DNA from: a phage
Direction: 5' to 3' (one strand)
DNA length: 51,253 bases
Sequence record: NC_105436.1
In this document: one piece after another, positions 732-51,214 of the stretch
How positions within the stretch are numbered: position 1 is the stretch's first letter
How the letters are laid out: the number at the start of each line of letters is the position of its first letter
The notes under the pieces: model-generated
Databases searched by the model: none
Told to the model about the DNA's origin: nothing
The model's input: only the letters and a program-made list of their open reading frames with translations
Position numbers and translations under genes: made by a program

Positions 732-989
732 ATGAAAAAAGAGAGAAGCGTTTATTTAAATGAAACTGGCGAATGGTTGTTATTTCGCGCTATGGTGTGC
801 GATGCACTTGATAAAAATCCTAACGTGAAAAAGATGATTGATTGCGATCCGTGGGAATTTTCAAGCGCATTAGATATGAGCTTTGAGGAGACAAGAAAAC
901 TCCCGCTTGAAAAATGGCACGAACAAATCAGAAATGACATGCAAGAGTTTGTTGATTCGTGGAATTTTCAGCACGGAATGATCCACTAA
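732..989 (+). CDS. hypothetical protein
   Basis: 85-aa ORF starting 4 nt after the Dam stop; no recognisable motif. Confidence 0.5.
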   Translation: MKKERSVYLNETGEWLLFRAMVCDALDKNPNVKKMIDCDPWEFSSALDMSFEETRKLPLEKWHEQIRNDMQEFVDSWNFQHGMIH

Positions 990-1032
990 TATCATTTTTT
1001 GTTAAAACGCCCGGCATTTTGTCGGGCATAAT
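988..1032 (+). promoter_or_regulatory. box cassette: 21-bp box + hairpin spacer + -10-like CATAAT
   Basis: ATCATTTTTTGTTAAAAC then inverted repeat GCCCGGC...GTCGGGC, then CATAAT 22 nt after TTGTTA. Confidence 0.55.
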
Positions 1033-1058
1033 TATTTCATAGAAACGAACGTGAGGAA

Positions 1059-1244
1059 ATGAAAATGGTAGTATATAGCAAGAAAGCATTTGACCAGGCG
1101 CAACAAACCGCACGCGAGGCGGTAAAAGGTGGAACGAAAAACAATATGCAGCTTGATTGGGGCGCTGCAATGATTCTACTTCGCGTTGCATATGGTCACT
1201 ACCCATTAGAATTTGCGGAGGCATATTATAAGCATGAAGGTTGA
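1059..1244 (+). CDS. hypothetical protein
   Basis: 61-aa ORF preceded by box cassette and conserved leader; alternative ATG at 1065 has better RBS spacing. Confidence 0.5.
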   Translation: MKMVVYSKKAFDQAQQTAREAVKGGTKNNMQLDWGAAMILLRVAYGHYPLEFAEAYYKHEG

Positions 1245-1476
1245 GCAAGGTAGAGATGCGGTATGGAATCACGCTAAAGAATGCGGAATAGCCGACGATA
1301 TAAAGAAGATCGCGCAATACTTTGATATTGCAGATGTGAGCATAATTAGCGGCGATAAGATGACTTTCCTCAAGGAAAGGCCGCGAAAAATGGTAAGAGT
1401 TCCAGCAGTTCCAACAAAAATTGATTTCAAAGAGGCAATGGCTAAAATCCGAGAGCCTCGCAAATATTATAAATGA
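1234..1476 (+). CDS. hypothetical protein
   Basis: ORF starting at internal ATG 1234, overlapping the upstream stop by 11 nt. Confidence 0.45.
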   Translation: MKVEQGRDAVWNHAKECGIADDIKKIAQYFDIADVSIISGDKMTFLKERPRKMVRVPAVPTKIDFKEAMAKIREPRKYYK

Positions 1477-1570
1477 GGATAGTTATCATGTGGCGCTTGT
1501 TTGTTCTACCGTTACCAGTTATCATCGCTGTTACAGTTATGTACCATATAGTAATGAGATAGGTATCAGA

Positions 1571-2686
1571 ATGAAAAATGTAAAAATTACAGATGAGCAA
1601 TTCAAGATCGAACGGGCGGCAGGTAAGACATATAAACAGATCGCTCAAGAGTACGGAATGAATGTGAGAAGCGTCGAGCGTCGCGCGGCGCGCCTTGCAA
1701 AACAAGGACAGCTATCAACCATCGGAGCGCCTGGTTTTGGTGTTCATGGTGAGTCAGTAATGACTGACAAAGAAGGAAATATAATCCTCAAGTGGACCAA
1801 AACCAGCAAGGATAAAGAGCAATTAGAGGCATTGATGCGCGCAGCAATGGAGGCGTTTAGCGAGGAAGTGCCGCGATTAGATCCAGTTCCATTGCAGGAG
1901 CGTAATTATAATGAAACGCTTTCATTGTATCCGATCTTTGACATGCACTTAGGCGCTATGGCCCATAAGCACGAATGCGGCGAAAATTGGGATACTGCGA
2001 CGGCAGAGCGCGTTATGAATAACTTTATCGACTATGCTTTGATGTGCGCGCCGGACAGCGAAAAGGCTGTTATCCTGATTGGTGGAGATATGCTGCATAG
2101 CGACGGCCTGGAGGCGGTGACACCTGCAAGCGGTCACGTACTTGATCAAGATAGCCGATATGCAAAATTGGTTTACGTTGCAATACGTGCAATGCGCCGC
2201 GCAATTAATAAAATGCTGTTAAAGCATAAACATGTTGAGGTCCAGATCGTAGAGGGGAATCACGACCAATCAGGAATGATTTGGCTACGCGCAGCAATGG
2301 CGGCAGCATATGAGAACGATCCGCGCGTTTACGTTGATGTTTCTCCTCGCGTTGTTCACCACACGCAATACGGAAAAACTTTCCTTGCGTACCATCACGG
2401 GCACACAGTGCGTAAACCTGAGACTTTGCTAATGATGTGCGCGTCAGATTGGCGGGAGGACTTCGGAAACTCAAAAACGATGTATGCGCACGTAGGGCAC
2501 TGGCATCACCAGACTGTGACGGAAACGTCGCTTGGCATCGTGGAGGTGCATAGCACCCTGGCGGCAAAAGACGCATACGCCGCGCGCGGTGGCTGGAGAT
2601 CTCGACGCCGTGCAGCGGTTATCATTTACGACAAAGAGCATGGAGAAGTTGGGCGATTTGTTCACTATCCAGAAATGATGAATTGA
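1571..2686 (+). CDS. HTH domain fused to calcineurin-like metallophosphoesterase
   Basis: Start taken at ATG 1571 (MKNVKITDEQ); N-terminal helix-turn-helix-like segment (KTYKQIAQEYGMNVRSVERRAARLAKQ); phosphoesterase motifs D-x-H (FDMHLG), GDxxD (GGDMLHSDG), GNHD (EGNHDQ), and His clusters HHGH and GHWHH. Confidence 0.65.
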   Translation: MKNVKITDEQFKIERAAGKTYKQIAQEYGMNVRSVERRAARLAKQGQLSTIGAPGFGVHGESVMTDKEGNIILKWTKTSKDKEQLEALMRAAMEAFSEEVPRLDPVPLQERNYNETLSLYPIFDMHLGAMAHKHECGENWDTATAERVMNNFIDYALMCAPDSEKAVILIGGDMLHSDGLEAVTPASGHVLDQDSRYAKLVYVAIRAMRRAINKMLLKHKHVEVQIVEGNHDQSGMIWLRAAMAAAYENDPRVYVDVSPRVVHHTQYGKTFLAYHHGHTVRKPETLLMMCASDWREDFGNSKTMYAHVGHWHHQTVTETSLGIVEVHSTLAAKDAYAARGGWRSRRRAAVIIYDKEHGEVGRFVHYPEMMN

Positions 2687-2733
2687 TGAATTTTTATTTA
2701 AATCAATGACAAATTAAATCAAAAACTTGCAAA

Positions 2734-2761
2734 GGGGCGGCGTTTGTCGCCTCTTTTTTTT
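2734..2761 (+). terminator. rho-independent terminator candidate
   Basis: GC-rich stem GGGGCGGC/GTCGCCTC followed by T8. Confidence 0.55.
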
Positions 2762-2833
2762 GTTTAAATTTTTATCATGTGCGTTTATTATGCGGTTAAT
2801 ATATTGACTTTTAATTAATATGGAGCATTAAAA

Positions 2834-3049
2834 ATGAAAGATTTTATTAACGCAGCTACCGCCGGATCTGGCGGTTCATCTATCGCAAGCGCCGCTACAG
2901 GTCAGTTAACCATTGCTATTGCCAGCTTTGTTTTAATGGCTGCATTCGGTGCGTGGGGCGCTTACCTTCGCTGGCGTGATAGTAAAAAATTCCACGAGGC
3001 GATAGAAAAAGGTGATATTCAAAAAGCTATTGAGATCAGGGGCAAGTAA
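2834..3049 (+). CDS. holin
   Basis: 71-aa protein with hydrophobic transmembrane segment and charged C-terminus, immediately upstream of the endolysin with TAATG overlap. Confidence 0.7.
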
Positions 3050-3540
3050 TGAGCATAAAGAACAGGGTAGCGGCTGCGGCATTTGGCGTTGCGGTTGCCT
3101 TGACTTCTCCACTTCTTGAAGAGATCGAAGGGGTAAGATACAAGCCATACAAAGATATTGCTGGAGTATGGACGGTTTGCGCAGGAATCACCGGACCAGA
3201 TGTTATCCTGGGGAAAACGTACACTAAAAAAGAGTGTGATGCTTTGTTGGCTAAACATATCCAGGTTGCTAAAAAAGAAGTTGACAAGCAGGTTAAGGTT
3301 GACATTCCTGATAGTATGCGTGCAGCAATGTACTCATTCACTTATAATGCAGGTGTGGGAGCTTTCAGAAATTCAACAATGCTGAAACTCATCAACCAGG
3401 GGAAATTAAACGAGGCTTGCGATCAGCTTTATCGTTGGACGTATTACCATAACCCCAAAACAGGAAAGCGCGAGAAGTCTAAAGGCTTACTTAACAGGCG
3501 CAAGGTCGAATACAAATATTGCACGATGGATCTGAAATGA
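3049..3540 (+). CDS. SAR endolysin (T4-lysozyme/GH24 family)
   Basis: N-terminal signal-anchor-release-like hydrophobic segment; E-x8-D-x5-T catalytic triad ([19 protein letters not shown]). Confidence 0.8.
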
Positions 3541-3932
3541 TGAAGAAATTTTTACTTACACCAATCGCAATGGCGGTGATCTTGTCTGGATGTTCAACCG
3601 TTACGCCACTGACCGGATTAATCGGCAGTAAGCCGGAAATCACAGCACAGGCTGGCGCGGAGAACGTGAAGCAGACAGTTGGCATTACAGCAAAGCAGGA
3701 CGCCAGCACAAAACAGGAAACCACAATAAAGGAATCTGCGGTTGACAAGGTGGACACGTCCAGCAAGAAGGATTTCACAACATCAACCATTCAGGCCAAT
3801 ACCATCAAGGCAGACAAAATTCAGGTCGTGCAGGGTAATAACGGCAGATGGTACGATCCGGTAATCATATGCGTGGTTGTGTTAATTGTGCTGATTTGTC
3901 TTTACTGGAGAGAAAAGAAAAAGGAGGCTTAA
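3537..3932 (+). CDS. unimolecular spanin (outer-membrane lipoprotein with C-terminal TMD)
   Basis: Lipobox LSGC after signal peptide plus C-terminal transmembrane helix ([16 protein letters not shown]); ATGA overlap with the endolysin stop; matches the T1-type u-spanin architecture. Confidence 0.7.
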
Positions 3933-3946
3933 TGCCTCCTTTATTT

Positions 3947-4171
3947 TTATGCGTCGGGCCACATATGAGTTTCGTTTGTTGGCTTGTTCGATTCGTCGTA
4001 CTGCCTTACTTCAATGCTGCAAGTGTCGCCATACATTTCTGCAATCTTGCGCTCATTTTCAACAGCCGATTGCTCACTCCATCCAAAATCCCTGTCATAA
4101 ATTGTCGGGATTTCAGCAGAAGATCCGTTGTCATGATTATATACGCGAACTACTAAAAACTTGCTGGACAT
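3947..4171 (-). CDS. hypothetical protein
   Basis: 74-aa ORF with box cassette and conserved leader upstream on the minus strand. Confidence 0.5.
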   Translation of the reverse strand: MSSKFLVVRVYNHDNGSSAEIPTIYDRDFGWSEQSAVENERKIAEMYGDTCSIEVRQYDESNKPTNETHMWPDA

Positions 4172-4205
4172 AATTTTACCTTTTGGTTGTTTCGTTTCGA
4201 TGAAA

Positions 4206-4253
4206 CAAATATACCCGACACTAGGCCGGGCGTTTTAACAAAAAATGCTATTC
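4206..4253 (-). promoter_or_regulatory. box cassette (minus strand)
   Basis: Minus strand reads ATAGCATTTTTTGTTAAAAC + hairpin + TATATT at 22-nt spacing, then conserved leader. Confidence 0.55.
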
Positions 4254-4442
4254 CATACGCTTTACCGTAACCAGTAATACACCATCATCATTGCATAAAA
4301 CATGTTCAGTGGTGCTAAAAGCGCGCATATCTGAATAAAGTAGCGTAAGTAAAGCATGAATAAAATCCTCATGTGATATTGAATTTACGGCGCAGTGCTT
4401 CAAGATCTTGTCTATTAGCTTTTGCCTGGAACAATTCATCAT
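4248..4442 (-). CDS. hypothetical small protein (uncertain start)
   Basis: ORF whose TAG stop is embedded in the box at 4232-4253, as for other genes; overlaps upstream gene, so start uncertain. Confidence 0.25.
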   Translation of the reverse strand: MMNCSRQKLIDKILKHCAVNSISHEDFIHALLTLLYSDMRAFSTTEHVLCNDDGVLLVTVKRME

Positions 4443-4764
4443 CGCCCATCTCCCCTATTCTAGCCATATCCCTGATCCAGTCGTTGCGCATACCATCCAG
4501 GCTATACAATTCGAATCCGAAAGGCCGCTTTGACGATCCTTTGGACCAGTATTTACCGCAGACCCCATCTATATAACCAGCCGTCATCATTCTTGCGCAA
4601 AATTCCTTAGATGCAAGGCTGGCGAACATTCGCGGCGTAAGTCCGGCGGCCCGTGCGAGCCGCTCGCATTCTCTATGCTGATAGATAAATTTGGCTATGT
4701 GCTGCCTGTTAAACCAGTCGTATGACTCACACCATTTATACAGATCAAGCAAAAACATAATCAT
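4369..4764 (-). CDS. hypothetical protein
   Basis: 131-aa ORF, ATGA overlap with the upstream ATPase gene stop. Confidence 0.5.
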   Translation of the reverse strand: MIMFLLDLYKWCESYDWFNRQHIAKFIYQHRECERLARAAGLTPRMFASLASKEFCARMMTAGYIDGVCGKYWSKGSSKRPFGFELYSLDGMRNDWIRDMARIGEMGDDELFQAKANRQDLEALRRKFNIT

Positions 4765-6341
4765 CCCAGCAGTATTGGATTGACAAAAATAACACCATTA
4801 ATCACACAAACATAATTTCTTTCTTCCAGCATTGGCAGCAAGTGCCCTTCTATCCTCTTCATTACGCCAGCTTGACCAACGAAAGGTTTTACCTTTCTCG
4901 CTGATTCGTACAGTGCGCGAATATTCAGAATCCCTTTATTAGCCTTGCCGTGTCTAGTGATCAATTCAATCAATTTACCCATTTCAGCATCATCACCAGC
5001 ATAACCAGAAGCATTGGCGGCGCTAATGTATGTTTTGCTCAATTCCTGAAACATGATCAGCGCCTCTTGCATTGTTTCCACGTCGATCTCTTTCGACTTC
5101 TGCGGGTATCCGGCAGGATTAAACCAGTTGCGGATAACATGCAGTACGGAAGCAAGCCTGATCACCTGTTTATCCATTTTACCCAGCGCACCGCGTAACA
5201 TTGTATGAGAATACTTTCCGCCGTCTGCAAGATGCGGTTCCATATCCTGGCGAGCAATGTTGAGCACTCGCATAGCTGAACGGCTTATTTTCAGCGATAC
5301 ATTTGATTCGCTCATGATGTTATGCACCAACTGATAATATTGGGCCTTCAATTCAGAATCCACCGCCTCATAGGTAGAATCACCATTTTCATCAATGAAT
5401 GAGCGACGGCCTAAGAATGATTCCTCGCGGACCAACAAAAAGCGCTCACTCACACCGATACCGCGCGATCCAGCGTCCATGATTCCGCTTATCGTTTCAT
5501 CCTGGGCTATAACGCTCATACATCCAAGCGCGCGAAAACTCATGTTATTGTCAGCATTAGCACGGGCAATTGATACGTGACCATTATCCCACGCCTTAAG
5601 CACTAGCTCACTGTTAGTCTTCCTTTCGCTATTTGCATAGGTCAAGCCTAACAGGCTGTTAATACTTGTTGCTTCGTCAGATATTACGGCAAAGTTACCT
5701 TGCTTGTTGTTGATTTTCGCCAAGCCTTCTGGAGTTGTATCTGAAACAGGGAAAGTTATATCACACATCTTTTCCAGCTTCTCCTCCAGATCCTCTTTTT
5801 CCTGGTATAGAGATTCCATATCAGCGCCTGACCTTTCGCTTTTCATCTCCTTTGAAAGACCTGCCAACTTTGCCTGTATTTTCTTTCTTTCCTTGCGGCG
5901 TTGCTCGTTGATCTTCTCAACTTCCGCAATCATCGGAGCAATAGCCATGCTGTTGATCGCAGATTTACCAGTTGATGGCGGCTGGCTTGTAACGACGTAA
6001 AGCGCAGTCGGCTGATCTGTTCCGTGATAGTCAACCGTAAAGCGTCCAAGCATAGCGGCAGAAATGCAGCCGATAAAGTGCATGTAAGCCGATGATTCAG
6101 GGAATTGAACGGATCGCGCAATGCTGCGTGATAGCTTGCCGACAACATCAATATCATTACCAAGAGAAATTACGGGGTAGCGATCGTGACCGCTATTTAC
6201 ATCCTTCACGTCGCCCCAAAAGCTGGACGACTGGCGATAGCCGTTAGCCTGAATTGATACGCGAACTGGCGAAAGGTTCTGGCTTTCAGCCATAGCGATT
6301 ATTTGCTGTGGAGTTAATTTGTTCGTTTCTAATGAAAACAT
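4761..6341 (-). CDS. putative P-loop NTPase (replication-associated?)
   Basis: 526-aa ORF with Walker A-like PPSTGKS and Walker B-like FAVISDE; coiled-coil K/E-rich stretch; family assignment (DUF3987-like) is a guess from motif pattern. Confidence 0.4.
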   Translation of the reverse strand: MFSLETNKLTPQQIIAMAESQNLSPVRVSIQANGYRQSSSFWGDVKDVNSGHDRYPVISLGNDIDVVGKLSRSIARSVQFPESSAYMHFIGCISAAMLGRFTVDYHGTDQPTALYVVTSQPPSTGKSAINSMAIAPMIAEVEKINEQRRKERKKIQAKLAGLSKEMKSERSGADMESLYQEKEDLEEKLEKMCDITFPVSDTTPEGLAKINNKQGNFAVISDEATSINSLLGLTYANSERKTNSELVLKAWDNGHVSIARANADNNMSFRALGCMSVIAQDETISGIMDAGSRGIGVSERFLLVREESFLGRRSFIDENGDSTYEAVDSELKAQYYQLVHNIMSESNVSLKISRSAMRVLNIARQDMEPHLADGGKYSHTMLRGALGKMDKQVIRLASVLHVIRNWFNPAGYPQKSKEIDVETMQEALIMFQELSKTYISAANASGYAGDDAEMGKLIELITRHGKANKGILNIRALYESARKVKPFVGQAGVMKRIEGHLLPMLEERNYVCVINGVIFVNPILLG

Positions 6342-6371
6342 TCGTTAGCTTCTCCTTTGTGGGCCGTAAAT

Positions 6372-6416
6372 TTTAACGGCCCAATACTACCCCGTTTTGT
6401 CAAAAAGTGCTATTTG
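6372..6416 (-). promoter_or_regulatory. box cassette variant (TTGACA in place of TTGTTA)
   Basis: Minus strand AATAGCACTTTTTGACAAAAC, hairpin GGGCCGT/ACGGCCC with TAAAAT in the loop. Confidence 0.5.
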
Positions 6417-6631
6417 ATCCGCTCTATTGCAACCAGAAGTCGATCAGGCTGGCGGTCGCTGTAGCATTCTCCTGTAATCCCATCCTTAAACGTAAAGTAA
6501 AGCGCCTTATGATATGAAAAACCAATCAGCCAACCTACCGCCGTTTTTTTGATGGGCCTGACTATATCGCCAGGCTTGAAAGTCTTTGTGGTAGAATGCG
6601 TTACTTTGTAACGGTTTTCACTGTTTATCAC
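6410..6631 (-). CDS. hypothetical protein
   Basis: 73-aa ORF, overlapping stop/start with neighbour. Confidence 0.45.
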   Translation of the reverse strand: MINSENRYKVTHSTTKTFKPGDIVRPIKKTAVGWLIGFSYHKALYFTFKDGITGECYSDRQPDRLLVAIERIK

Positions 6632-7014
6632 AGATATTTGCCCTCAAACAGATAACAGCCGCCAGCAGAGAATCCGACCTCTTCACGGTACAGGTTCCAG
6701 CGGTCGCCGCACTCATCAAAAACATAACCCGCAACGCTTCCAAGCGGTCGCCCTTTCTCGATCTGGTATCGCTTGCCCTGCTTAAAGTGCTTTTTGCACG
6801 GCATGTTATGATCTACAAACGTGCAAAGAACGGTTTTTGTGTTAATGGCGCGGTAATCATCTCGGTTTGCTGGAAGCCAGCGGCTACCCTTAACAAGCGT
6901 CTTAACCTGGAACTCTTCCACCTCGATCACATCATCACTTCCTGCAATCTTCTGATAAACCGTTTTAAAACGGCCTTTCATCAATACGTTGGTTTCATTA
7001 CAGATAACATTCAT
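6628..7014 (-). CDS. hypothetical protein
   Basis: 128-aa ORF with box cassette, hairpin, CATAAT and RBS GGAG upstream. Confidence 0.5.
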   Translation of the reverse strand: MNVICNETNVLMKGRFKTVYQKIAGSDDVIEVEEFQVKTLVKGSRWLPANRDDYRAINTKTVLCTFVDHNMPCKKHFKQGKRYQIEKGRPLGSVAGYVFDECGDRWNLYREEVGFSAGGCYLFEGKYL

Positions 7015-7043
7015 GATCAGATCTCCTTTGTTTGTTCGATGTG

Positions 7044-7088
7044 ATTATGCCAGGTTTTTACACCTGGCTTTTAACAAAAAGTGCTATT
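7044..7088 (-). promoter_or_regulatory. box cassette (minus strand)
   Basis: Box + hairpin GCCAGG/CCTGGC + CATAAT at 22-nt spacing. Confidence 0.55.
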
Positions 7089-7794
7089 TTGAGTTTGACT
7101 CAAAGACGGCGCGAGCAAAGCCGCGCGGAGTGAGGGAGCGGATCATCTTTGTGCGCGATGACTTACCGCCAGTTTTGGCCCAGCCTGGATTATCTTTGTC
7201 TTCCTCTTTCGGCAGGATTAAAGCGCGCGGAGGAATAACAAAGCCGTTGCCAGTCCAGAGGCACGTTTTCTTAAAATAGCGATCCCGTGCCGGAATAATA
7301 TCAGGGAAGTCGGGATGTTTATCATCTTCCGGCAGATAGCCAGCGTAATCGCACGGATGGAACGTATAATCAGGCTTTCGCCATAACGTTGACAACTTGC
7401 CAACCGGATTTTCGATCATGTAAGGAACACCGAAATAATCAGCTATATCAGCCGCGATTCTGCAAGTGTCGGCGGCCTCATCCTGGAACGATGGATTCTC
7501 AAGGCGTTTTTTGGCCCAATGGCGAGATCCGCTATTTGCAAGGTCGGTGCACGGCGGAAATGCCATAATAAAGTCAGGAATGCCCCATTCCTCCCAGCGC
7601 GCGCGGTGGTAAAATCTTTCATCAATCCAGACGTTAACGTATTCGATATTCTCATGCTGTATGCGCACTGACTGGTAATCACCGTGATCGCCGCCGTCAG
7701 CATTAAAGCAAATGCACTTATAGCCATTATCAGCCCAATCTTTAACAGCTTTACCAGATCCATCAAATAGGGAGAATATTAAACCTTTATACAT
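7084..7794 (-). CDS. DNA cytosine-C5 methyltransferase-like protein (short)
   Basis: Start taken at ATG 7794 (MYKGLIFSLFDGSG); motif I-like FSLFDGSG, PC catalytic motif (FPPCTDLANSG), ENV-like motif (YMIENPVG); unusually short at about 237 aa. Confidence 0.5.
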   Translation of the reverse strand: MYKGLIFSLFDGSGKAVKDWADNGYKCICFNADGGDHGDYQSVRIQHENIEYVNVWIDERFYHRARWEEWGIPDFIMAFPPCTDLANSGSRHWAKKRLENPSFQDEAADTCRIAADIADYFGVPYMIENPVGKLSTLWRKPDYTFHPCDYAGYLPEDDKHPDFPDIIPARDRYFKKTCLWTGNGFVIPPRALILPKEEDKDNPGWAKTGGKSSRTKMIRSLTPRGFARAVFESNSK

Positions 7795-7804
7795 CGTAAT
7801 TACC

Positions 7805-8029
7805 TCAAAACGGAAAACAGCGCGCACAACCAGGATCGAAATCGCATCCACAATCATTAACAATCATAGTGGGATCTGCAAATATTGCGCTTGATTCAAG
7901 ATCCATATCCATATCACCTAAAGCCTCATCAAGAGTCTTAATTTTATATGCCACTTCAAGCGCCGCCTCTTTATTTAGTCCGGCATCTTCTGCCATTTGA
8001 AGGCGCTCAAAAAAACCGTCCTGACTCAT
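7805..8029 (-). CDS. hypothetical acidic protein
   Basis: 74-aa ORF, strongly acidic (D/E-rich) with a C-terminal Cys cluster. Confidence 0.45.
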   Translation of the reverse strand: MSQDGFFERLQMAEDAGLNKEAALEVAYKIKTLDEALGDMDMDLESSAIFADPTMIVNDCGCDFDPGCARCFPF

Positions 8030-8142
8030 CGCATAATCTCCTTAATAACAACCAAGATAATAGCCAGGCCAGCAGCAGTAACCAAAAAGCCAGCCGCGCC
8101 AATAATCGAATAAAAAAAGAAATCAATAGCTTTATCCATCAT
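8026..8142 (-). CDS. hypothetical small membrane peptide
   Basis: 38-codon ORF (MMDKAIDFFFYSIIGAAGFLVTAAGLAIILVVIKEIMR) with RBS GAGGTGA; below the ORF-track size cutoff. Confidence 0.3.
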   Translation of the reverse strand: MMDKAIDFFFYSIIGAAGFLVTAAGLAIILVVIKEIMR

Positions 8143-8184
8143 TTTTCACCTCATTTAAAAGGCGGCAAAACGCCGCCAGATTAA

Positions 8185-8412
8185 TTAAAGAGCGCGCCAA
8201 CTTTGAATATAGAAAGCGTTTTCTTCCAGTAATTCTTTTAACTGATCTTTATTGTATTTGCGCACCTTACCGCCTGGATGGATGCCAATAAGATAGCCTC
8301 CTTTGCCCTCGGTGATAGTGATTTGGCTAATTCCGCAAGACTTATCAAGTTTTACAGACACGCGGTGATGAGCGTCAATAGTTGCCATAATGTTTAAAAC
8401 TTTTGCTTTCAT
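8185..8412 (-). CDS. hypothetical protein
   Basis: 75-aa ORF. Confidence 0.45.
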   Translation of the reverse strand: MKAKVLNIMATIDAHHRVSVKLDKSCGISQITITEGKGGYLIGIHPGGKVRKYNKDQLKELLEENAFYIQSWRAL

Positions 8413-8520
8413 TTAAATATCCTCAATTGAAATATGAATGACGTGGCGCTCTTTTTCCGTCGCCGCCGTAATGGTCATTTGCAACCGCTACCATCCAGGC
8501 ATTTTTGAAAATAAATAGCC

Positions 8521-8733
8521 TCATTTCTTATTTTTCATCTTAAATTTATGGCCTGGAACACCAGCGCCAATATAGCCATCGTTGTATTCCATTAAATAAA
8601 GGTGAAGACCATTGTCTGAAATTACATGGGGATCTTCTTTGGGATTTCCCATTAGTGGATATTCTTTTCCGCGCGTAAATCTCCAAGCTGAGTTATAAGT
8701 TTCTACGCATTTAAGTTTTAATTGCTTTGCCAT
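8521..8733 (-). CDS. hypothetical protein
   Basis: 70-aa ORF. Confidence 0.45.
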   Translation of the reverse strand: MAKQLKLKCVETYNSAWRFTRGKEYPLMGNPKEDPHVISDNGLHLYLMEYNDGYIGAGVPGHKFKMKNKK

Positions 8734-9014
8734 TATGCGATCCCAGTTACGTTAAAACTTACAGCCCTTGTTGCGCTAAATACATAAGCATCAACAGCGC
8801 CGCCAAATACACGAATTTTACCCTGGCCGTACTGCGCATTCATATTTCGCCAAACCGTTCTATTAGAGCAGAATGCGCTACCAGTCTTAATAAGCGTATC
8901 CATCTCTTTTCTTAGATCGCGATAGTCCAGCCAGAATCTAAAGGCACGCTGTTTAATTCGCGCCGCCTTGATTTTTTCTCTTGCGCTATTGAAATCATTC
9001 TTTTCGTATGCCAT
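8733..9014 (-). CDS. hypothetical protein
   Basis: 93-aa ORF, start/stop overlap with neighbours. Confidence 0.45.
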   Translation of the reverse strand: MAYEKNDFNSAREKIKAARIKQRAFRFWLDYRDLRKEMDTLIKTGSAFCSNRTVWRNMNAQYGQGKIRVFGGAVDAYVFSATRAVSFNVTGIA

Positions 9015-9713: not shown

Positions 9714-9734
9714 ATTTTCAAATCCTCGCATTCG

Positions 9735-43228: not shown

Positions 43229-43289
43229 CAAACCAAATAAATAGATAAACTTTTATAATGGTTGGTGATATAATTCGCCAACCAGATAA

Positions 43290-43958
<669 letters not shown>

Positions 43959-43963
43959 TAAAC

Positions 43964-43983
43964 GGGGCGCTTGCGCCCCTTTT
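43964..43983 (+). terminator. terminator-like hairpin
   Basis: GGGGCGC/GCGCCCC stem + TTTT between Erf-like and SSB genes. Confidence 0.45.
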
Positions 43984-44001
43984 GTCATAGGAGAAAACAA
44001 A

Positions 44002-44454
44002 ATGCACGTTATTACAGGTGAGATCCGAAAAGAGCCAAAAGTAAAGCAAATGCCTAACGGCAGCACGCTATATGTTGTTGAGCTTTCCGAGCGATACAAA
44101 GACCGAGAAGGAAATTGGCAGTATACAAACTATGTGTTTTTCTTTAACGCGAAAACAGACGGCCTGAATGGTTGGTATGCTGAGGCTTTCCAAGTAGGAA
44201 AGGTTATTTCTGTTTCCTGCGATACCTTGCGAGTTGAAACGCGAGAATACAACGGAAAGATTTACAGCACCGTGCAGCCTGGCGGATTTGCAAACCTGCT
44301 ATTTAGCCAGCGCGGAGAAAGCCAGCAACAATATCAGCAGCGAACGCAAGGAGGCTGGGGGCAACCACAACAGCAACAGCAACAAAATACTCAACAGCAG
44401 CCACAGCAAAGCAATCAGCCGCCGATTGACTTTGACGATGATATACCATTCTAA
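44002..44454 (+). CDS. ssb: single-stranded DNA-binding protein
   Basis: OB-fold-sized N-terminal domain, Gln/Gly-rich linker, acidic C-terminal tail ending DFDDDIPF. Confidence 0.8.
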   Translation: MHVITGEIRKEPKVKQMPNGSTLYVVELSERYKDREGNWQYTNYVFFFNAKTDGLNGWYAEAFQVGKVISVSCDTLRVETREYNGKIYSTVQPGGFANLLFSQRGESQQQYQQRTQGGWGQPQQQQQQNTQQQPQQSNQPPIDFDDDIPF

Positions 44455-44456
44455 TA

Positions 44457-44485
44457 ACAAAAAGCCCCGCATATGCGGGGCATTT
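44457..44485. terminator. bidirectional terminator candidate
   Basis: A-run, GCCCCGC/GCGGGGC stem, T-run; between convergent SSB and fibre genes. Confidence 0.7.
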
Positions 44486-47104
44486 TTATTTGAGATCAAC
44501 AAGTTTTGCAACCATCGACTTTAATTCGTCAACCTCACTTCTTAGCGATCGCAATTCCTCCTCCTGCTCTTTGCAAACTTGCAATATGTATGCAGTTACC
44601 GCTGAGTAGTCAACTTGTAGAAATCTTTCCTTCCCAATAAGTTCGCTACCGTCTTTTGTTGGGCCATGCAATTGCTGATAATCCTCAAAAGAACTAATAG
44701 CCTCCGGCACAACCTCCATGATCTCTTGAGCTATAACTCCAGCATAAGGCATACCATCTTTCTTTAACGTGTATGTATACCCACTAACTTTCTCAAGACC
44801 TAGCCTTGCATTTTCAATTGGTTTAATGTCAGTTTTCAAATCTCTGTCTGACCCCTGGTTAAATGCTGTTGCGTTCACAGGTCCGTTAACTTGCAGGTGT
44901 TTAGAGTTATTTGAGTTTAACTGAGCATAGAACACCCATCCAGGGCCGTTATCGAAACCCCACTCAATAACCGACTGACGATCTGACCCGTTGCCCCACA
45001 ACTTGAAGGTTGCCGGGTGTGACGAGTTGCCATCGTTCAGCATTTTGAAATACTTACCACTCGGTCGGTCTATCTCCAAACTCGCCGCCTGTACATATGC
45101 TTTCCCCGCGAAATTCTTAGTTCCGAGTACGACGCCGTCGGTGATCAACTCAACCTTAGAAGACGTGATGTCGTTCAGAAACAGCGCGCTCGTTCCGGTG
45201 TCCTTCCCTAAAAACCAAAGACGTGTGCCAGCGGAGTTGTACCCTGTTACGTGCAGTGGTTGGTTGTTTGTTGACGCTGTTCCGTCGATACGAAAACCGC
45301 CATTAGCAGTTGTAACTTTAATGGTTGGTACGGTCATAGCGAATGCGCCACTGGCAGCAAGGCCGTTATACGCGATCAGCTTGTTGTCATACGCAAGCTC
45401 ACCATTGTCGCGCATTTGTAGCACTTTCTGCGACGTCCTGTTGCGAATGCCAACATCCGTGCCGCCTACAAACATTTCGACGATTCGATCACCGCTTTTA
45501 GCTCTCACGTAAGCGTTATATTCCGGCGACGACCCCGCGTTATACAACTCGTACCATTTCGACCAGATGCCAGTAGTCGCGTTACTAAGCCATCGCATAA
45601 AACGACGCCCGCTATTGTATCCTGTAAACGTCTGTATGCAGCTTTTAGGATCGTTAGCGCCAGTGCGCTGAACAAGTAGACAACCTGCTTCCTGAACGGG
45701 ATAATTACGCTCCGGCGTTGCGTTGGCAGATAAGCCAGTATAATAAAATCCAGCCTTATCACCCTGAAGGATGTTAAGGTCTTCGCTAACCAACGTTGCC
45801 CTGCGCTCATGCATGACCTGAAGGTTGGCGCGCGCTCCCTGGTCGTTCGATGCGCCTGTCCCACCGTCCCCGATCGCCACGTCACCGTTAGCACCCAGCT
45901 TCGCCAGTTCAATGGCGCCCACATTTCCAGATGAGCCGTTAATCGCGGCATTGTTTCCAGCGAAAACCTTCACGCGAGAGGTCTGGTAGTCAACGTTAAA
46001 CGCAAAAAATGTGTCACCAGCCCCGCCGCACACCCCTGGACCATACCTGAACGGCGTCATCTCGCCAGAAGGGAACTGCGTAATATCATCGACGCGCCAG
46101 AATCCTCCTTTGACAGTATCGCGCAACCGCTTGAGCATATCCCTTACGCCAGTCGGCGCAGGTAATGTTACACCCGCATACGGCACTCTATTTTGAGCCT
46201 CTGAACTTTCAGCAGCAGCCGCTGCGCGATCAGCCTCTGTTTTAGCCTTGCTTGCACTGTTTGCAGCATTAGTTTCAGATGTTTTGGCGTTTGTCTCAGA
46301 AGTCTTCGCGGCACTAGCCGAGTTAGCAGCATTAGTTTCCGATGTTTTAGCCGCATTCTTACTTGCATTAGCTGCATTTTCAGATGCTTTGGCATTAGTT
46401 TCCGATGTTTTAGCAGCAGATGCAGAATTAGCAGCAGCAGCCTTGTTTGCGCTTGAGTTTGTCTCTGATTCCTTTGCGTTAGCTGCCGCGACTGAAGCCT
46501 CATTCCTGAAATTTTCAGACTCGTATCTATACCTTTGGGCGTCTGTTTTGCTGGTATTTGCTGCATTTTCAGATGCTTTGGCATTAGTTTCCGATGTTTT
46601 AGCCGCATTCTTACTTGCATTAGCTGCATTTTCAGATGCTTTGGCATTAGTTTCCGATGTTTTAGCGTTTGTCTCAGAAGTCTTCGCAGCGCTGGCGCTT
46701 TGTTTTGCTGATTCAGCGCCTTGTTTCACCTGATTTACAAGATCTTTCAACCCATCAAGATCGAAATCTCTAAAAAATTCAAGTGCGTCAGCGATCTCCG
46801 TTTCCTTGCTTTGATAGTAACGCAGTGTTTCCGCTACGTCCTGCGCCAGCCCGTCAACCGTTAACGAGTCATGAAGCAAGATCAGGTAATTTGTCTTTTG
46901 GACTACCGCGCCGCCAGTAGTAATTGCGCGAATGCTTGTATCGCTAATCACCTCTGTAATCACAGCAGCTTGCAAAGGTTGAGTAAGAAAGAAAATAGTT
47001 GCACCTGGGCGAATTAATGTTAATTGCTCACGCCATTTTGTATCGTAACCAGTTACATAACCTTGCGCGTCCATAGACGCTTGGCCTTGTCTGTAAATCG
47101 CCAT
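44486..47104 (-). CDS. lateral tail fibre with C-terminal intramolecular chaperone (peptidase S74-like) domain
   Basis: Start at ATG 47104 (RBS AGGAGG); tandem Ala/Ser/Thr/Asn-rich repeats; C-terminal segment ([30 protein letters not shown] ... [12 protein letters not shown]) typical of the auto-cleaving fibre chaperone domain. Confidence 0.8.
46250..46700. repeat. tandem and dispersed direct repeats inside the tail fibre gene
   Basis: Units such as GCATTAGTTTCCGATGTTTTAGC and GTTTGTCTCAGAAGTCTTCGC recur several times; they encode the A/S/T/N-rich protein repeats. Confidence 0.8.
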
Positions 47105-47120
47105 TTGTAAAATCCTCCTA

Positions 47121-47154
47121 AATAGCACTTTTTGCTAATGACAATGCAGATAAT
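47121..47154 (+). promoter_or_regulatory. box copy facing away from adjacent fibre gene
   Basis: AATAGCACTTTTTGCTAA on the plus strand directly abutting the minus-strand fibre gene RBS; no plus-strand gene downstream. Confidence 0.35.
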
Positions 47155-47170
47155 AGCATTTTCAAGTGTA

Positions 47171-47194
47171 AAAAAAACCCCCGCATAAGCGGGG
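47171..47194 (-). terminator. rho-independent terminator candidate (minus strand)
   Basis: Minus strand CCCCGCTTATGCGGGG + T7, downstream of the primase gene. Confidence 0.6.
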
Positions 47195-47210
47195 CAATAC
47201 TAGCGGAGTT

Positions 47211-48140
47211 TTATAGCAGTGATTCAGGCTTGTAGATTTTTCTTTCTACACCCTGTTTAAAATTATCGTTAACAGGCATCATTATGTCAAGCCCTCTTTC
47301 CTCTGCCGCGATTATCACATCACGATCATCTTTCCGGCATACTACGCGCATTCTTCTTTCTCCTTTATATCTATGCGCAACCATTTCAAGATTTGAAGGT
47401 GTAAAGCAGGCCCACACCTCTTGACCAGTTGATAAATGAACATGTTGGGAGTCAACCCAATCAAGGCACAAATAGATCGTCTTATCCGTGCTACCTGTTT
47501 TAACAACAGATCCGCGCGTGTAGTCGCGAGCTAAAAACCAATCCTTTCCATCCTCATCAATGAAAAGCACGTTACACATTTCATCATCCAGCCCGTCATC
47601 ATGCACCAGGTGACAAGGTAGCGCGTGAATGTATCGACCATTCTTGACGCCGCAATCATAATGACAATCTTCCGGCGGATATATCCCCTCATAAACGCTT
47701 AAGGGTGTGCGATCGAATTTTAATGTTTTTGCCATCACTTTTTCGCAGCATTCATGACTTGCCTGTTTCCCGAACGAGTAGCCAGAAGAACGTGAAGCGC
47801 GCTTGTTTGCTCTGATCCTGTAATCTTGTGGCACTTTGCCGAGAAAGCGGCCCAAAATGTTGATGGCCTCGCTGTAAGGTTCGCCAGTTAATTTCATTAA
47901 CCAACCGATCCCCGTGTCGTTACCGCATACGTTGCAGATAGCGCCGCCGTCGCCCTCTTCATTTAGCTTATCGGTCCATCTAAAACGATCCTTACCGCCG
48001 CAGTGTGGGCAAGGCTGATGCTTTTTGTTGAAAACATCGCTATGCAGTCCGCAAATGCTTTGTAGCGCTTCACGCCATAACCCCTTCATATATGGCAAAA
48101 CGTCTTCTTTCTGATAGGTCATAAAGTTTTCAGTATTCAT
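47211..48140 (-). CDS. DNA primase (zinc-ribbon type)
   Basis: Cys4 zinc ribbon CPHCGGKDRFRW ... CNVCG; start at ATG 48140. Confidence 0.6.
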   Translation of the reverse strand: MNTENFMTYQKEDVLPYMKGLWREALQSICGLHSDVFNKKHQPCPHCGGKDRFRWTDKLNEEGDGGAICNVCGNDTGIGWLMKLTGEPYSEAINILGRFLGKVPQDYRIRANKRASRSSGYSFGKQASHECCEKVMAKTLKFDRTPLSVYEGIYPPEDCHYDCGVKNGRYIHALPCHLVHDDGLDDEMCNVLFIDEDGKDWFLARDYTRGSVVKTGSTDKTIYLCLDWVDSQHVHLSTGQEVWACFTPSNLEMVAHRYKGERRMRVVCRKDDRDVIIAAEERGLDIMMPVNDNFKQGVERKIYKPESLL

Positions 48141-48152
48141 AGCAACCTCAAT

Positions 48153-48187
48153 AAAAAAGCCCAGCAAATATTATCATTTCGCTGGGC
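48153..48187 (-). terminator. terminator-like hairpin (minus strand)
   Basis: Minus strand GCCCAGC...GCTGGGC stem + T6 between the HTH gene and primase. Confidence 0.45.
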
Positions 48188-48194
48188 CTTATCA

Positions 48195-48671
48195 TTAGCT
48201 ATTCGTGCTGTTATCACCTTTGTAGAATCGTCCGCCTGGTTCGTAGTCTGAATTTTTGACTACGCGCAACATTTCGTATTTGTCGCAACGTGTAGTAAGA
48301 GGCTTGCCGTTAGAATCAAACCGCAGATCTGGACGACAAAACGAGGCGCGGTATCCTTTGCATCCATTATATTTGTAGTCGTTATGCACCTTTTGTGCTC
48401 CAGCGGCTGAAATCATACCACGCTTTCGCCACTGGTTAACGACTTGCTGAGATACGCGCAGACGTCGAGCCATAGCAGGAACACCGCCGTAATACTCGAT
48501 CAGAATGTCAAGGCGAGATTTCAGGCTTGCTTTTACCTCATCTCGCAGGATAAGAAATCCGGTTCGGTGTTTTCGTGGCTTTTTGTCTTTACCTCGTCGC
48601 GTTCCGTTGTTACCGTTAATAGTGCGCTTGTCGATCTCACCCGTAGACACTGCAATTCGTGCATCTTTCAT
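48195..48671 (-). CDS. putative HTH DNA-binding protein
   Basis: Helix-turn-helix-like segment (GGVPAMARRLRVSQQVVNQWRKRG); Cys-containing C-terminal region; divergent from the helicase gene. Confidence 0.45.
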   Translation of the reverse strand: MKDARIAVSTGEIDKRTINGNNGTRRGKDKKPRKHRTGFLILRDEVKASLKSRLDILIEYYGGVPAMARRLRVSQQVVNQWRKRGMISAAGAQKVHNDYKYNGCKGYRASFCRPDLRFDSNGKPLTTRCDKYEMLRVVKNSDYEPGGRFYKGDNSTNS

Positions 48672-48680
48672 CTAGTCACC

Positions 48681-48726
48681 TCATAGCATTTTTTGTTAAA
48701 ACAGTTTATTGTAATGAGTCTATTAT
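48681..48726 (+). promoter_or_regulatory. box cassette upstream of helicase
   Basis: CATAGCATTTTTTGTTAAAAC + 22-nt spacer + TATTAT. Confidence 0.55.
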
Positions 48727-48758
48727 ATACTCCAAATGGCATTTTTTAAAGGTTTAAG

Positions 48759-50756
48759 ATGATTCCAAATATCGAAAAACAAATATCAGCGTTAGGCGAG
48801 GCAGTAATAAAAAGCATCCAAGAGCGATTCACGGTTGGCAATATAGTGCCTTATCCTTATCAGTGCGTTGCGTATGCCGAGATCGCAAAGCGCATGAAAA
48901 ACTATGAGCATCCTTTCTTTGTTAAGGCTTCTGTGTCGGCTGGCAAAACATTGATGTTTGCAATGGTTGCGGCGCAATGCCGCAAAATGGGATTGAAAAT
49001 GATGGTCCTTGCTCGCCAGGCTGAAATTGTTGATCAGGATTCGGAAGAGATCAGCAATCTTGGCGTGCCAAACTCAATCTATTGCGCCGGACTGAAAACA
49101 AAAAGCGCATACTTTCCGATCGTAGTCGGTTCTGAGGGCACTGTAGTAAACGGATTGTTTAAGTCGTTAGGTGATTATGTTCCGCACGTTATCGGTATTG
49201 ATGAATGTCACCAGGTGGATTGGGAGGATCTCGCCGACGCGATAGAAAATAATGAATCTTACCAGCAGATGACCACTAAGAAGGATTTGCCTGTACTGAT
49301 TGGAGAAGAACAGCAATTTGATTCCAATGGCGATCCAATGTTCGGAACAGGGCGCACACAGTACACCGTAATAATCATGGAAATGATGCGCAGGTGTCGC
49401 GAGGCATACGGGCACGAATTGCGAATATTCGGTATGACTGGATCTGAGTTTCGCGGCGTTGTTCCAATACTGGTTGAAGATAAGAACAAAAAGGGATTCT
49501 GGCGTGAGCAGGTGACTAACATAGACACAAACTACTTAATCAAATTTGGTTCGGTAGTGCCAACAAATTTCGGCGACGTAGGCGACCTGGGGTATGACCT
49601 TTCAGAGTTCGAAGCCAGTAGCGAGGATGGCGTTTCAGACTTTGACGCTAAAACATTGCGCAAGATGGAAGAAAAAATCCATCAAGACGCAACAATGACA
49701 CAGAAAATCATGGCTAAAGTCCATGAGATATGCAAAGACAGGAACGGAGTTTTAGTTACATGCGCAGGGGAAAGACACTGCAAGGAGGCCGCCGCCGCAC
49801 TGCCGCAAGGCGTTGAATACAGGATCATAACTGGAAAAACTGGAGATAATCAGCGTAAAGAGTGGCTTAGGGAGGCATACGAGGGGAAAGTAAAATACAT
49901 CTTCCAGGTACAGGCGCTTACCACTGGCGTTAACGTTCCGTTTTGGGATACTTCGGTAATACTGAGAAAGATAGGATCTCTAACATTGCTTATCCAGCTT
50001 TTGGGGCGCGGTATGCGACTGCTTAAGCAATGGCACATTGAGCAGGGATTCAAGAAAAAAGATCATCTTGTATTGGATTTTGCAGGTACTATGGATGAGT
50101 TAGGGGATTTGTATTTCGATCCAATACTTGAGCAAGCGCAATTTCAAAAGAGATTTACAAACGGGAAAGAGCCTAAGACTTGCCCGATATGTGGAACGCT
50201 AAACAGCTTTTACGCTCGCCGATGTATGCACGTAGACGATAACGGGAAACGATGTGAGCATTTTTGGACTTACAGAATTTGCGAGGACCAGGTAGATCCG
50301 AGAACGAAAAAGATAATCAAGCGCGGTTGCGGAACAAAAAACGACGTAGTGGCGAGAGTATGCCGTTGTTGCGATATTTCTCTTGTCGATCCTAACGAGA
50401 AGTTAAGCGGCAAGCACTACACAAAAAACGATTGGTGCAACGTTAAATCTTTCCGCGTTGATATGACGAAAAACCAGAAAGGAATTGTTTTTTGCTATGA
50501 GCTTGAGGCAAACGGCGACACGTTCAAGGCATACGAAAGATTTTTCCCTGAGTCAGAAAGCAACATTTGCCGGACGATATGGAGAAAAATAGCATTGCAG
50601 CACATACCGGATCGCAAGATTGCTGGTATGGTGGCGAGCTATAGAAATGCGCGTAAAATAATGTCATACGCTCATCACATCATGCCTCCTGTACGCGTAA
50701 CGCATCGCAAGAACGGCAAAGGTGAGGATAACATTGCAAAACGGGAGTTTGTTTAA
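48759..50756 (+). CDS. SF2 helicase (DEAH-type) with C-terminal zinc ribbon
   Basis: Walker A (SVSAGKT), DEAH-like box (IGIDECHQ), helicase C-domain-like motifs, CxxC...C...C cluster. Confidence 0.75.
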   Translation: MIPNIEKQISALGEAVIKSIQERFTVGNIVPYPYQCVAYAEIAKRMKNYEHPFFVKASVSAGKTLMFAMVAAQCRKMGLKMMVLARQAEIVDQDSEEISNLGVPNSIYCAGLKTKSAYFPIVVGSEGTVVNGLFKSLGDYVPHVIGIDECHQVDWEDLADAIENNESYQQMTTKKDLPVLIGEEQQFDSNGDPMFGTGRTQYTVIIMEMMRRCREAYGHELRIFGMTGSEFRGVVPILVEDKNKKGFWREQVTNIDTNYLIKFGSVVPTNFGDVGDLGYDLSEFEASSEDGVSDFDAKTLRKMEEKIHQDATMTQKIMAKVHEICKDRNGVLVTCAGERHCKEAAAALPQGVEYRIITGKTGDNQRKEWLREAYEGKVKYIFQVQALTTGVNVPFWDTSVILRKIGSLTLLIQLLGRGMRLLKQWHIEQGFKKKDHLVLDFAGTMDELGDLYFDPILEQAQFQKRFTNGKEPKTCPICGTLNSFYARRCMHVDDNGKRCEHFWTYRICEDQVDPRTKKIIKRGCGTKNDVVARVCRCCDISLVDPNEKLSGKHYTKNDWCNVKSFRVDMTKNQKGIVFCYELEANGDTFKAYERFFPESESNICRTIWRKIALQHIPDRKIAGMVASYRNARKIMSYAHHIMPPVRVTHRKNGKGEDNIAKREFV

Positions 50757-51175
50757 TGGCTATAACTGATAAAGGCGATTATCTTGAGTTTTACGAAAGA
50801 GATCCAACCGACACGAGAAGGGAAGTTAATCACCAGATAGATAGTTTTCAGTGGTTGACTTATGCTCATCCTTATTTGCTGGCGTGGCATACGGTAAACG
50901 AGAATGAGAAGTCTAAAGCAACGGCGATGATTGATCAGCAGTCAGGCTTGGTTAAGGGTGTAAGCGATTTCATCATCCTGATTGGTTTAAACGGAAAATA
51001 CCCATTTGCAGCGATTGAGATCAAGCGAGTTAATAAATCAGGCAAGGGGAAAGCATCACCAGTCAGCGATGAACAAAAGGCTTTTTTGCGTCGAGTTCGC
51101 AGCTTAGGAGGATTCGCTGCGGTCGCCTACGGATTTAATCAGTTTAAGTTGGCTATTGAATACATGCTTAAATAG
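50756..51175 (+). CDS. VRR-NUC domain nuclease
   Basis: PD-(D/E)XK-like core (SDFIIL ... AIEIKR) in a 139-aa protein directly after the helicase. Confidence 0.6.
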   Translation: MAITDKGDYLEFYERDPTDTRREVNHQIDSFQWLTYAHPYLLAWHTVNENEKSKATAMIDQQSGLVKGVSDFIILIGLNGKYPFAAIEIKRVNKSGKGKASPVSDEQKAFLRRVRSLGGFAAVAYGFNQFKLAIEYMLK

Positions 51176-51214
51176 CACTTTTTGTTAAAACTGGCGCGAT
51201 GGATTGCGCCATAA
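51171..51214 (+). promoter_or_regulatory. box cassette at window end
   Basis: Box + hairpin GGCGC/GCGCC + CATAAT; followed by GGAGAAATGA at the very end of the window. Confidence 0.55.

Follow-up and report, generated by a model that had tools for sequence, protein, structure and literature searches.

A repeated 21-nt box of a T1-like phage matches the host marbox and probably marks class II promoters

A 21-nt box, present in 22 copies in the phage genome NC_105436.1 (51,253 nt; this whole stretch is referred to below as the window), was found to match fully the consensus marbox of the host activators MarA, SoxS and Rob and to stand, in most of its copies, in the geometry of class II promoters of the micF type. 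In a preliminary description of this DNA the box had been taken as the mark of a phage-specific promoter class, a label that its match to a host site does not support. Judged from sequence and geometry, the box modules are probably class II MarA/SoxS/Rob-type sigma70 promoters served by host factors, and it is probably by means of these host proteins that the phage switches on its early genes. According to megablast comparison the window belongs to a Warwickvirus (Drexlerviridae, Tempevirinae; T1-like) with about 96-97% identity to Poky, vB_EcoS-95, tonijn and FritzSarasin; its early genes run leftward from ~11100 and rightward from ~11650, the late genes occupy ~20400-40500, and the replication and recombination genes occupy ~42000-51253.

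The repeat itself is already published. In the 2024 re-annotation of phage TLS a 21-nt direct repeat with the consensus aaATAGCACnnnTTGnTAAAA was reported in 18 intergenic copies. These point along transcription, lie some 76 nt ahead of start codons and form three subgroups, depending on whether the central triplet is TTT, GAA or AAA; the repeat also occurs in T1, Rtp and Rogue1 (PMC11447400). The authors found only three sigma70-like promoters, reported no sigma factor or RNA polymerase gene, and suggested that the repeats are stoperators, enhancer sites or UP elements (PMC11447400). This repeat is the same element as the box considered here; that paper gives it without a fixed distance to a -10 and without the marbox identity. 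A search of the accessible literature library for a link between the marbox and phage promoters returned nothing relevant. The function of the 21-nt repeat was named as one of four open questions on T1-like phages in 2024 (PMC11447400), and the marbox identity makes it experimentally simple.

Marbox match and promoter geometry

The 21-mer AATAGCACTTTTTGTTAAAAC occurs in the window in 16 copies at ≤3 mismatches, compared with 0 in 100 shuffles, and in 20 copies at ≤5 mismatches. Consensus searches add two more, the GAA/TTGCTA variant at 17036(+) and the copy at 36879(+), and the total of 22 agrees with the approximately 20 copies first counted. The marbox is an asymmetric site to which MarA, SoxS and Rob, or RamA in Klebsiella, bind as monomers, and enterobacteria carry this MarA/SoxS/Rob regulator family. 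Its consensus 5'-gcannwwntgnnaaa-3' (GCANNWWNTGNNAAA) comes from the Grainger laboratory, from an E. coli study unrelated to phages (PMC12052159). Used unchanged as a search pattern, it matched the window exactly at 18 places, where 1.5 were expected and no more than 5 turned up in any of 100 shuffles. T1 gave 20 matches (0.76 expected), and Klebsiella Webervirus KLPN7 gave 14 (0.73 expected). Both GCACTTTTTGTTAAA and GCACGAATTGCTAAA agree with it at all ten specified positions, and the pattern ATAGCACNNNTTGNTAAA has 23 matches in T1, where 0.5 are expected. A longer marbox consensus, AYNGCACNNWNNRYYAAAY (AYnGCACnnWnnRYYAAAYn), which reportedly goes back to Martin et al. 1999, gave 19 matches in the window at ≤1 mismatch versus 1.2 expected. 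The mar marbox CCACGTTTTGCTAAA (S2 of PMC12052159) and a Webervirus box, GCACGTTTTGCTAAA, differ by a single base.

The distribution of conserved and variable bases follows the same consensus. Across T1, TLS and the window ATAGCAC, TTG and TAAA are invariant, whereas variation is seen in the central triplet and in the base that follows TTG. The differences between phage copies (TTT, GAA, TAA, AAA, CTT or GAT in the triplet; TTGTTA or TTGCTA) fall on the N, W and Y positions of the marbox, and GCAC, TG and AAA are fixed. Moreover, G4 and C7 of the box never vary, in contrast to their dyad partners, and such asymmetric conservation fits a monomeric binder with a pair of helix-turn-helix (HTH) motifs better than a dimeric HTH protein. 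The reading of the box as a dimeric operator (TAGCA-N6-TGCTA) was rejected because of this asymmetry and the predominance of TTGTTA in the window. None of the sites of IHF, Fis, CRP, DnaA, ArcA and OmpR, compared by eye, could be fitted, and an Rfam gathering scan of the window resulted in 0 matches.

The best TATAAT-like hexamer follows TTGYTA after 22 nt in 16 copies; in 14112 and 41726 the distance is 21 nt. Expressed as the gap between marbox and -10, these distances are 18 and 17 bp, respectively. The spacing of 21-22 nt that had been ascribed to every copy first counted holds for 18 of the 22, and no hexamer was found at this distance in 22574(+), 27198(-), 36879(+) and 47121(+). The hexamers of the modules (CATAAT, TATAAT, TATATT, TATAGT, TACATT, TAAAGT, TAAAAT, TATTAT and TAGATT) follow the form YAYAWT, often with G or TG before the hexamer, GG or TGG being the usual preceding bases. 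As the preliminary description stated correctly, TTGTTA lies about 5 bp too far away for a sigma70 -35. At the true -35 position the sequence is AAAACN, leaving no usable -35. TTAAAA at 19 nt (18 nt in two copies) is a possible weak residual -35, but it leaves the conserved ATAGCAC unexplained. Since the marbox ends 18 bp before the -10, it covers approximately -50 to -31 with the centre at about -41. Canonical promoters are not enriched, the scan for TTGACA-N16-18-TATAAT having yielded 35 matches versus 35.3 expected from shuffles in 1-20000 and 19 versus 20.4 in 40000-51253. Two promoters had been called consensus ones; that at 11652 is perfect (12/12), while the term was overstated for that at 42115 (TTGACT-16-TACAAT), which reaches only 10/12.

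Class II promoters are defined by a forward marbox that overlaps the -35, its AAA element facing the core promoter and its GCAC element lying farther away (PMC12052159, PMC10268841). Their sites cluster near -41, and they possess a canonical -10 and essentially no -35 match (mean 1.9 of 6) (PMC10268841). In micF, the paradigm of this class, the soxbox is centred at -41.5 (PMC9638938) and RamA binds at about -41 (PMC8811837). The phage modules show all of these features: they carry the consensus marbox with the polarity that, judged by the -10 and the annotated +1, it has in micF, it overlaps the -35 with the centre near -41 relative to the predicted start sites, and a poor -35 (AAAACN) is combined with a canonical -10. 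As read from the MG1655 genome, E. coli micF consists of the marbox ACAGCACTGAATGTCAAAAC, 18 bp, TAGAAT, 7 nt and the annotated 5' end (+1), and the phage module consists of ATAGCACTTTTTGTTAAAAC, 18 bp (17 in two copies) and YATAAT, the two marboxes sharing 15 of 20 bases, including the AAAAC end, as well as polarity and gap. As to the scan of related phages that had been proposed earlier, the box is present in T1, TLS and KLPN7, and the spacing is preserved in T1 and KLPN7: 14 KLPN7 modules align ungapped with micF through marbox and -10, and the aligned T1 modules keep the 22-nt distance from TTGYTA to the hexamer, mostly with a TGn extended -10. In fumC a perfect marbox, ATGGCACGAAAGACCAAACA, lies 17-19 bp from an ambiguous AT-rich -10.

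Thus the modules have in common with host class II promoters of MarA, SoxS and Rob (or RamA), which besides micF include fumC, lpxC P2, lpxL P1 and rfaY P1, the marbox, its orientation, the overlap with the -35, the 18-bp gap and the lack of a recognisable -35. This geometry agrees with the activator-dependent architecture that had been suspected from the start, in which a protein site replaces the -35. In contrast to the host promoters, they belong to a virulent phage and not to a chromosome, occur in about 18-20 near-identical, near-consensus copies per 51 kb, frequently have a GC stem-loop, an A/C-rich leader and the upstream stop codon within the marbox, and their binding by the activator is a prediction.

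Proposed activation by host proteins and rival explanations

The marbox match, the micF-like geometry, the pattern of variable positions and the failure to find an AraC-family gene together make host-served class II promoters the most likely interpretation of the box modules. In the proposed mechanism the 20-bp ATAGCAC-NNW-TTGYTAAAAC would act as a forward consensus marbox with GCAC distal and AAA proximal, replacing the -35 hexamer. It would be bound by a monomer of a host two-HTH activator, either Rob (constitutive), MarA or SoxS (induced), or RamA in Klebsiella. The bound activator is expected to touch the C-terminal domain of the RNA polymerase alpha subunit (alpha-CTD) and sigma region 4 and to recruit the polymerase, as in the solved micF complexes. 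The predicted transcription start lies about 7 nt past the hexamer and coincides with the A of the CATCGAAACGA leader, which is conserved. Induced SoxS amounts to about 2,500 molecules per cell (PMC9638938).

In the six-frame open reading frames (ORFs) of the phage no AraC/XylS homologue was detected by tblastn and a small hidden Markov model search (best E 0.22) with hand-typed queries of MarA, SoxS and the N-terminal domain of Rob. The annotated "transcriptional regulator" (48195-48671, minus) is a Cro/YdaS-type single-HTH protein. DUF7174 (11711-12175), the first gene product behind the 11652 promoter, was modelled by AlphaFold with a pLDDT of 83 and gave weak, non-significant winged-helix-like hits, with no hit at E ≤ 0.001 among PDB folds in Foldseek. 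Altogether the Pfam scan of eight early proteins, PDB sequence searches and the AlphaFold and Foldseek analysis of DUF7174 provided no convincing DNA-binding assignment beyond the Cro-like HTH.

In a wider form it is suggested, tentatively, that virulent T1-like phages, the Drexlerviridae of Escherichia, Klebsiella and other enterobacteria, may have wired most of their early transcription to host MarA, SoxS, Rob or RamA by means of about 20 consensus class II marbox promoters per genome. If so, early expression would read out and possibly titrate the mar/sox/rob state of the host, responses to the individual activators could be adjusted by the box subtypes TTT, GAA and AAA, and hosts with constitutive MarA or RamA, for example multidrug-resistant clinical isolates, would be differentially permissive. 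Confirmation would make this an uncommon instance in which a virulent phage conducts its early programme by way of a host regulon for stress and antibiotic resistance, would predict an interplay of the phage with salicylate, bile, oxidative stress and mar/ramA resistance mutations, which bears on therapy with Klebsiella Webervirus and E. coli Drexlerviridae, and would supply a set of very strong natural marboxes.

Several observations weigh against activation by host proteins. The marbox is a degenerate motif, the -10 and +1 of the modules are predicted, no start-site, RNA-seq, binding or expression data for T1-like phage promoters were found in the literature, and the search for a phage homologue depended on hand-typed queries. 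MarA and SoxS are scarce in unstressed cells, and Rob is abundant but largely inactive without inducers; since T1-like phages nevertheless plaque well on laboratory K-12, the promoters may possess substantial activator-independent activity, and a TGn extended -10 is present in many modules, especially in T1. Finally, a phage protein of different fold could read the same sequence, DUF7174 and the Cro-like HTH protein being the candidates.

The last point leads to an explanation that we regard as unlikely, namely that a phage DNA-binding protein expressed from one or more consensus sigma70 promoters activates the boxes in a MotA-like cascade, as the preliminary description had supposed, or, in a variant close to the stoperator idea of the TLS authors, represses them late. 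It is favoured by the fact that the sole perfect sigma70 promoter (11652) drives DUF7174, whose model has a helix-helix-helix and beta-hairpin segment next to its weak winged-helix-like similarity, that the conserved Cro/YdaS-type gene adjoins a box promoter, and that the TTGCTA variants hold the inverted repeat TAGCA-N6-TGCTA. However, the full marbox match, the micF-identical spacing and the marbox-like variable positions would then be coincidences, and the asymmetric conservation does not fit a dimeric Cro-type HTH, the imperfect TTGTTA variant being the predominant one in the window. The absence of a detected AraC-type protein and of a significant fold match for DUF7174 speaks against the supposed cascade as well, and the leftward operon and most rightward genes would have to hang on a single consensus promoter at the start of infection.

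In T4 the MotA box, (a/t)(a/t)(a/t)TGCTTtA, has its centre near -30 at a distance of 11-13 bp from the -10; it requires phage MotA together with AsiA. T4 middle promoters resemble the phage modules in having a protein-binding box in the place of the -35 at a sigma70-type -10, but their box is of other sequence and is centred near -30, whereas the phage box ends 18 bp from the -10 and has its centre near -41, and the analogy with MotA that had been drawn before is not supported. The Pfam scan, limited to the eight early proteins, revealed no MotA or AsiA hits. The stoperators of the mycobacteriophage L5 type, at which a bound phage repressor blocks elongation, are, like the phage boxes, asymmetric, numerous and co-oriented with genes. 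The boxes, however, keep a fixed promoter distance from a -10. A repressor of such specificity is not known, and a Cro-like HTH gene exists.

Slightly less probable still is the proposal, also derived from the TLS authors, that RNA polymerase holoenzyme alone recognizes the modules as extended -10 promoters in which the alpha-CTD contacts the box as a UP-like element or an enhancer placed upstream. A nearly invariant G at -14 and the frequent TGn agree with it, as do the growth of T1-like phages on unstressed K-12 and the likeness of the TTTTT-GTT-AAAA variant to T/A tracts. On the other hand, no more than roughly a quarter to a half of the copies have TGn. A UP element is an A/T-tract at approximately -59 to -38 that is read by the alpha-CTD without base-specific G/C requirements, while the box occupies about -50 to -31, its GCAC and TG are invariant, and its T-tract is abolished in the GAA, GAT and CTT variants with GCAC, TG and AAA remaining fixed. 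The invariant GCAC in particular argues for base-specific reading in the major groove. In a related system, the promoter-early stem-loops (PeSLs) of T4-like phages, the promoters are strong in uninfected cells (PMC2839356), which is a further point for recognition by holoenzyme alone.

Stem-loops, cassette junctions and distribution

Apart from the marbox and the -10, the modules contain several further elements. In at least 14 copies the upstream ORF has its stop codon within the box or at its edge, as follows from the ORF ends and box coordinates and as had been observed before. Of 18 modules, 11 form a GC-rich stem-loop (z < -1.5) in the 40 nt that follow the box, located in the 18-bp gap or extending over the -10, and two of the stem-loops are terminator-like; the mean minimum free energy of the 40 nt after the box is -9.6 kcal/mol compared with -5.5 kcal/mol for random 40-mers of the window. 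Its frequent location in the gap or across the -10 would be explained by the gap being free of sequence constraint, and the stem-loop probably attenuates read-through from the upstream gene. The leader CATCGAAACGA begins at the predicted start site and is followed by GAGGA and ATG. This A/C-rich leader, CATCGA(A/C)AACGA, located ~7-20 nt past the -10 (e.g. 12482-12493; 11034-11046 minus), may enhance translation or serve as the initial transcribed sequence; it is present in the modules of the window, T1 and Klebsiella phage KLPN7, is common to three Drexlerviridae subfamilies, and recurs in the copy in phage RB43.

When the early region was compared with FritzSarasin and SECphi27, five of 18 distinct breakpoints (9287, 9774, 14111, 15345 and 15716) fell within 2 nt of a box edge, about 0.1 being expected, and cassettes extending from box to box were replaced or absent as a whole. 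Together with the stop codon in the box this corroborates the compaction and cassette modularity that had been proposed. The position of the breakpoints on box edges indicates a further role of the modules as junctions between cassettes, similar to that of the PeSLs of T4-like phages, and near-identical modules reaching from the upstream stop codon to the next start codon could provide the homology for gene-cassette swapping. PeSLs were described to terminate read-through and to mediate modular shuffling (PMC2839356, PMC4122927). They are similar to the box modules in the sequence of stop codon, promoter, stem-loop between -35 and -10 or over the -10, Shine-Dalgarno sequence and start codon, in the location before small early genes and in marking indel and replacement junctions (PMC2839356, PMC4122927). 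In the window this repeated module and its location at indel and replacement junctions between close relatives were both found. The difference lies in the promoter: PeSLs have consensus sigma70 -35 and -10 elements at normal spacing with an AT-rich upstream region, whereas in the box modules TTGYTA is 21-22 nt from the -10 and a marbox stands 5 bp further upstream in place of the -35. In this way the PeSL idea of promoter and stem-loop as a cassette-exchange junction extends from T4-like myoviruses to siphoviruses. That the repeats are mainly recombination or mobility signals of gene cassettes, with a marbox likeness devoid of regulatory meaning, is very improbable. The breakpoints at box edges and the presence of box and leader in the unrelated RB43 speak for it, but homology for recombination leaves unexplained the fixed 18-bp distance to the -10 across variable spacers, the co-orientation with genes and the variation at marbox-unspecified positions only, and a recombination role is compatible with promoter function rather than an alternative to it.

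A query with the 75-nt module retrieved 1033 phage records, almost all of enterobacterial Drexlerviridae. Their hosts are Klebsiella (504), Escherichia (337), then Shigella, Salmonella, Citrobacter, Enterobacter, Cronobacter and Pantoea, with a few records listing others (Campylobacter, Vibrio). That nearly all of these hosts are enterobacteria, which carry the MarA/SoxS/Rob family, is a further point in favour of host activators. A Jhansiroadvirus recorded on Vibrio has the same module geometry. In T4-like RB43 (AY967407 57679-57778) one box and leader precede the small ORF096w with a true terminator hairpin between them, owing to which the distance from the box to the -10 is not of class II; this copy suggests, on sequence grounds, that the module moves between phage families. 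Enterobacter phage N5822 (MW032452.1; 78 kb, 14 matches) was considered as a second family and set aside as uninformative, being a Drexlerviridae record with a duplicated assembly. Marked "circular", this record includes one long block in duplicate, has many of its genes in fragments and looks like a misassembled Drexlerviridae genome of ~50 kb.

Individual copies and neighbouring features

At the left end of the window the box AATATCATTTTTTGTTAAAAC at 988-1032 (plus) has a weak RE1 and is followed by an 18-bp gap with a GC stem-loop (terminator-like) and CATAAT. The minus-strand modules of the early region are 4208-4252 (GCATTTTTTGTTAAA, -10 TATATT, stem-loop in the gap), 6370-6414 (TTGACA variant, -10 TAAAAT, stem-loop across the -10), 7044-7088 (TGG-CATAAT, an extended -10, with a stem-loop in the gap), 9243-9287, whose upstream edge 9287 is a synteny breakpoint, 9749-9793 with the breakpoint 9774 inside the box, and 11053-11097 (-10 TACATT), the first promoter of the leftward early operon. 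The perfect TTGACA-16-TATAAT promoter that drives the DUF7174 gene, not of box type, lies at 11652-11679 (plus).

On the plus strand there follow the modules 12431-12475 (TGG-CATAAT, perfect 7-bp stem in the gap), 12894-12938 (CATAAT), 14112-14155 (17-bp gap, TATAAT, stem-loop across the -10, breakpoint 14111) and 15345-15389 (TATAGT, stem-loop across the -10, breakpoint 15345). The module at 15716-15759, which starts at the breakpoint 15716, has a defective marbox with a 1-bp deletion within the box between GCAC and TTG, with TATAGT 22 nt past TTGTTA. The module at 17035-17079 is of the GAA/TTGCTA type (ATAGCACGAATTGCTAAAC, TATAAT) and was detected only by the marbox consensus and not by the box search at ≤5 mismatches, and that at 18356-18400 has TGG-TAAAGT and a stem-loop across the -10. 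In the right part of the window modules were found at 41703-41746 (minus; GTAGCACTTTTTGCTAAAC, 17-bp gap, TATAGT), at 48682-48726 (plus; GCATTTTTTGTTAAA, TATTAT) before the helicase gene, and at 51171-51215 (plus; CATAAT, stem-loop in the gap), and the TTGACT-16-TACAAT promoter at 42115-42142 (plus) precedes the recombination genes.

Among the remaining copies, 27198(-), 30948(-) and 47121(+) are antisense to neighbouring late genes, and the statement that the box is always oriented with transcription is not strictly true. A plus-strand box of the TAA/TTGCTA type at 22574-22594, between the terminase large subunit and portal genes, has no class II -10 and is followed by a terminator-like hairpin. 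A degenerate box, ACAGCACAAAAGGTTAAAA, at 36879-36897 (plus) precedes a tail-tip J-like gene and has counterparts in T1 (25021) and TLS (DR8); another degenerate one, at 47121-47141 (plus), is antisense to tail-fibre and primase genes, with a T1 counterpart at 34902. The box at 27198-27218 (minus), the counterpart of T1 15069 (minus), has TTGTTA 17 nt from TATGTT, a canonical spacing, and the segment 27170-27218 (minus), conserved in T1 (~15040-15086 minus), may be an antisense promoter, situated immediately upstream of the gene for the major capsid protein. The antisense box at 30924-30968 (minus; T1 counterpart 18833, minus) possesses class II spacing (TAGATT) and lies ~40 nt upstream of a bidirectional terminator; this part of the tail-gene block (30870-30968 minus; T1 ~18740-18850 minus) could produce a small RNA of ~35-45 nt that ends at the terminator.

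Two neighbouring regions may be of regulatory significance. The 550-bp non-coding region between the divergent early operons (11100-11650) could be an origin or a regulatory region and holds AATCA/TAATCA repeats (11125-11220), two exact copies of CGGCGGATTGC (11509 and 11540), TATATA-rich palindromes and G/T-rich runs. At 48671-48760 the divergent TTTAAA-17-TATAAT promoter of the Cro/YdaS-like gene overlaps back to back the helicase marbox promoter (48682, plus), which is a possible regulatory switch.

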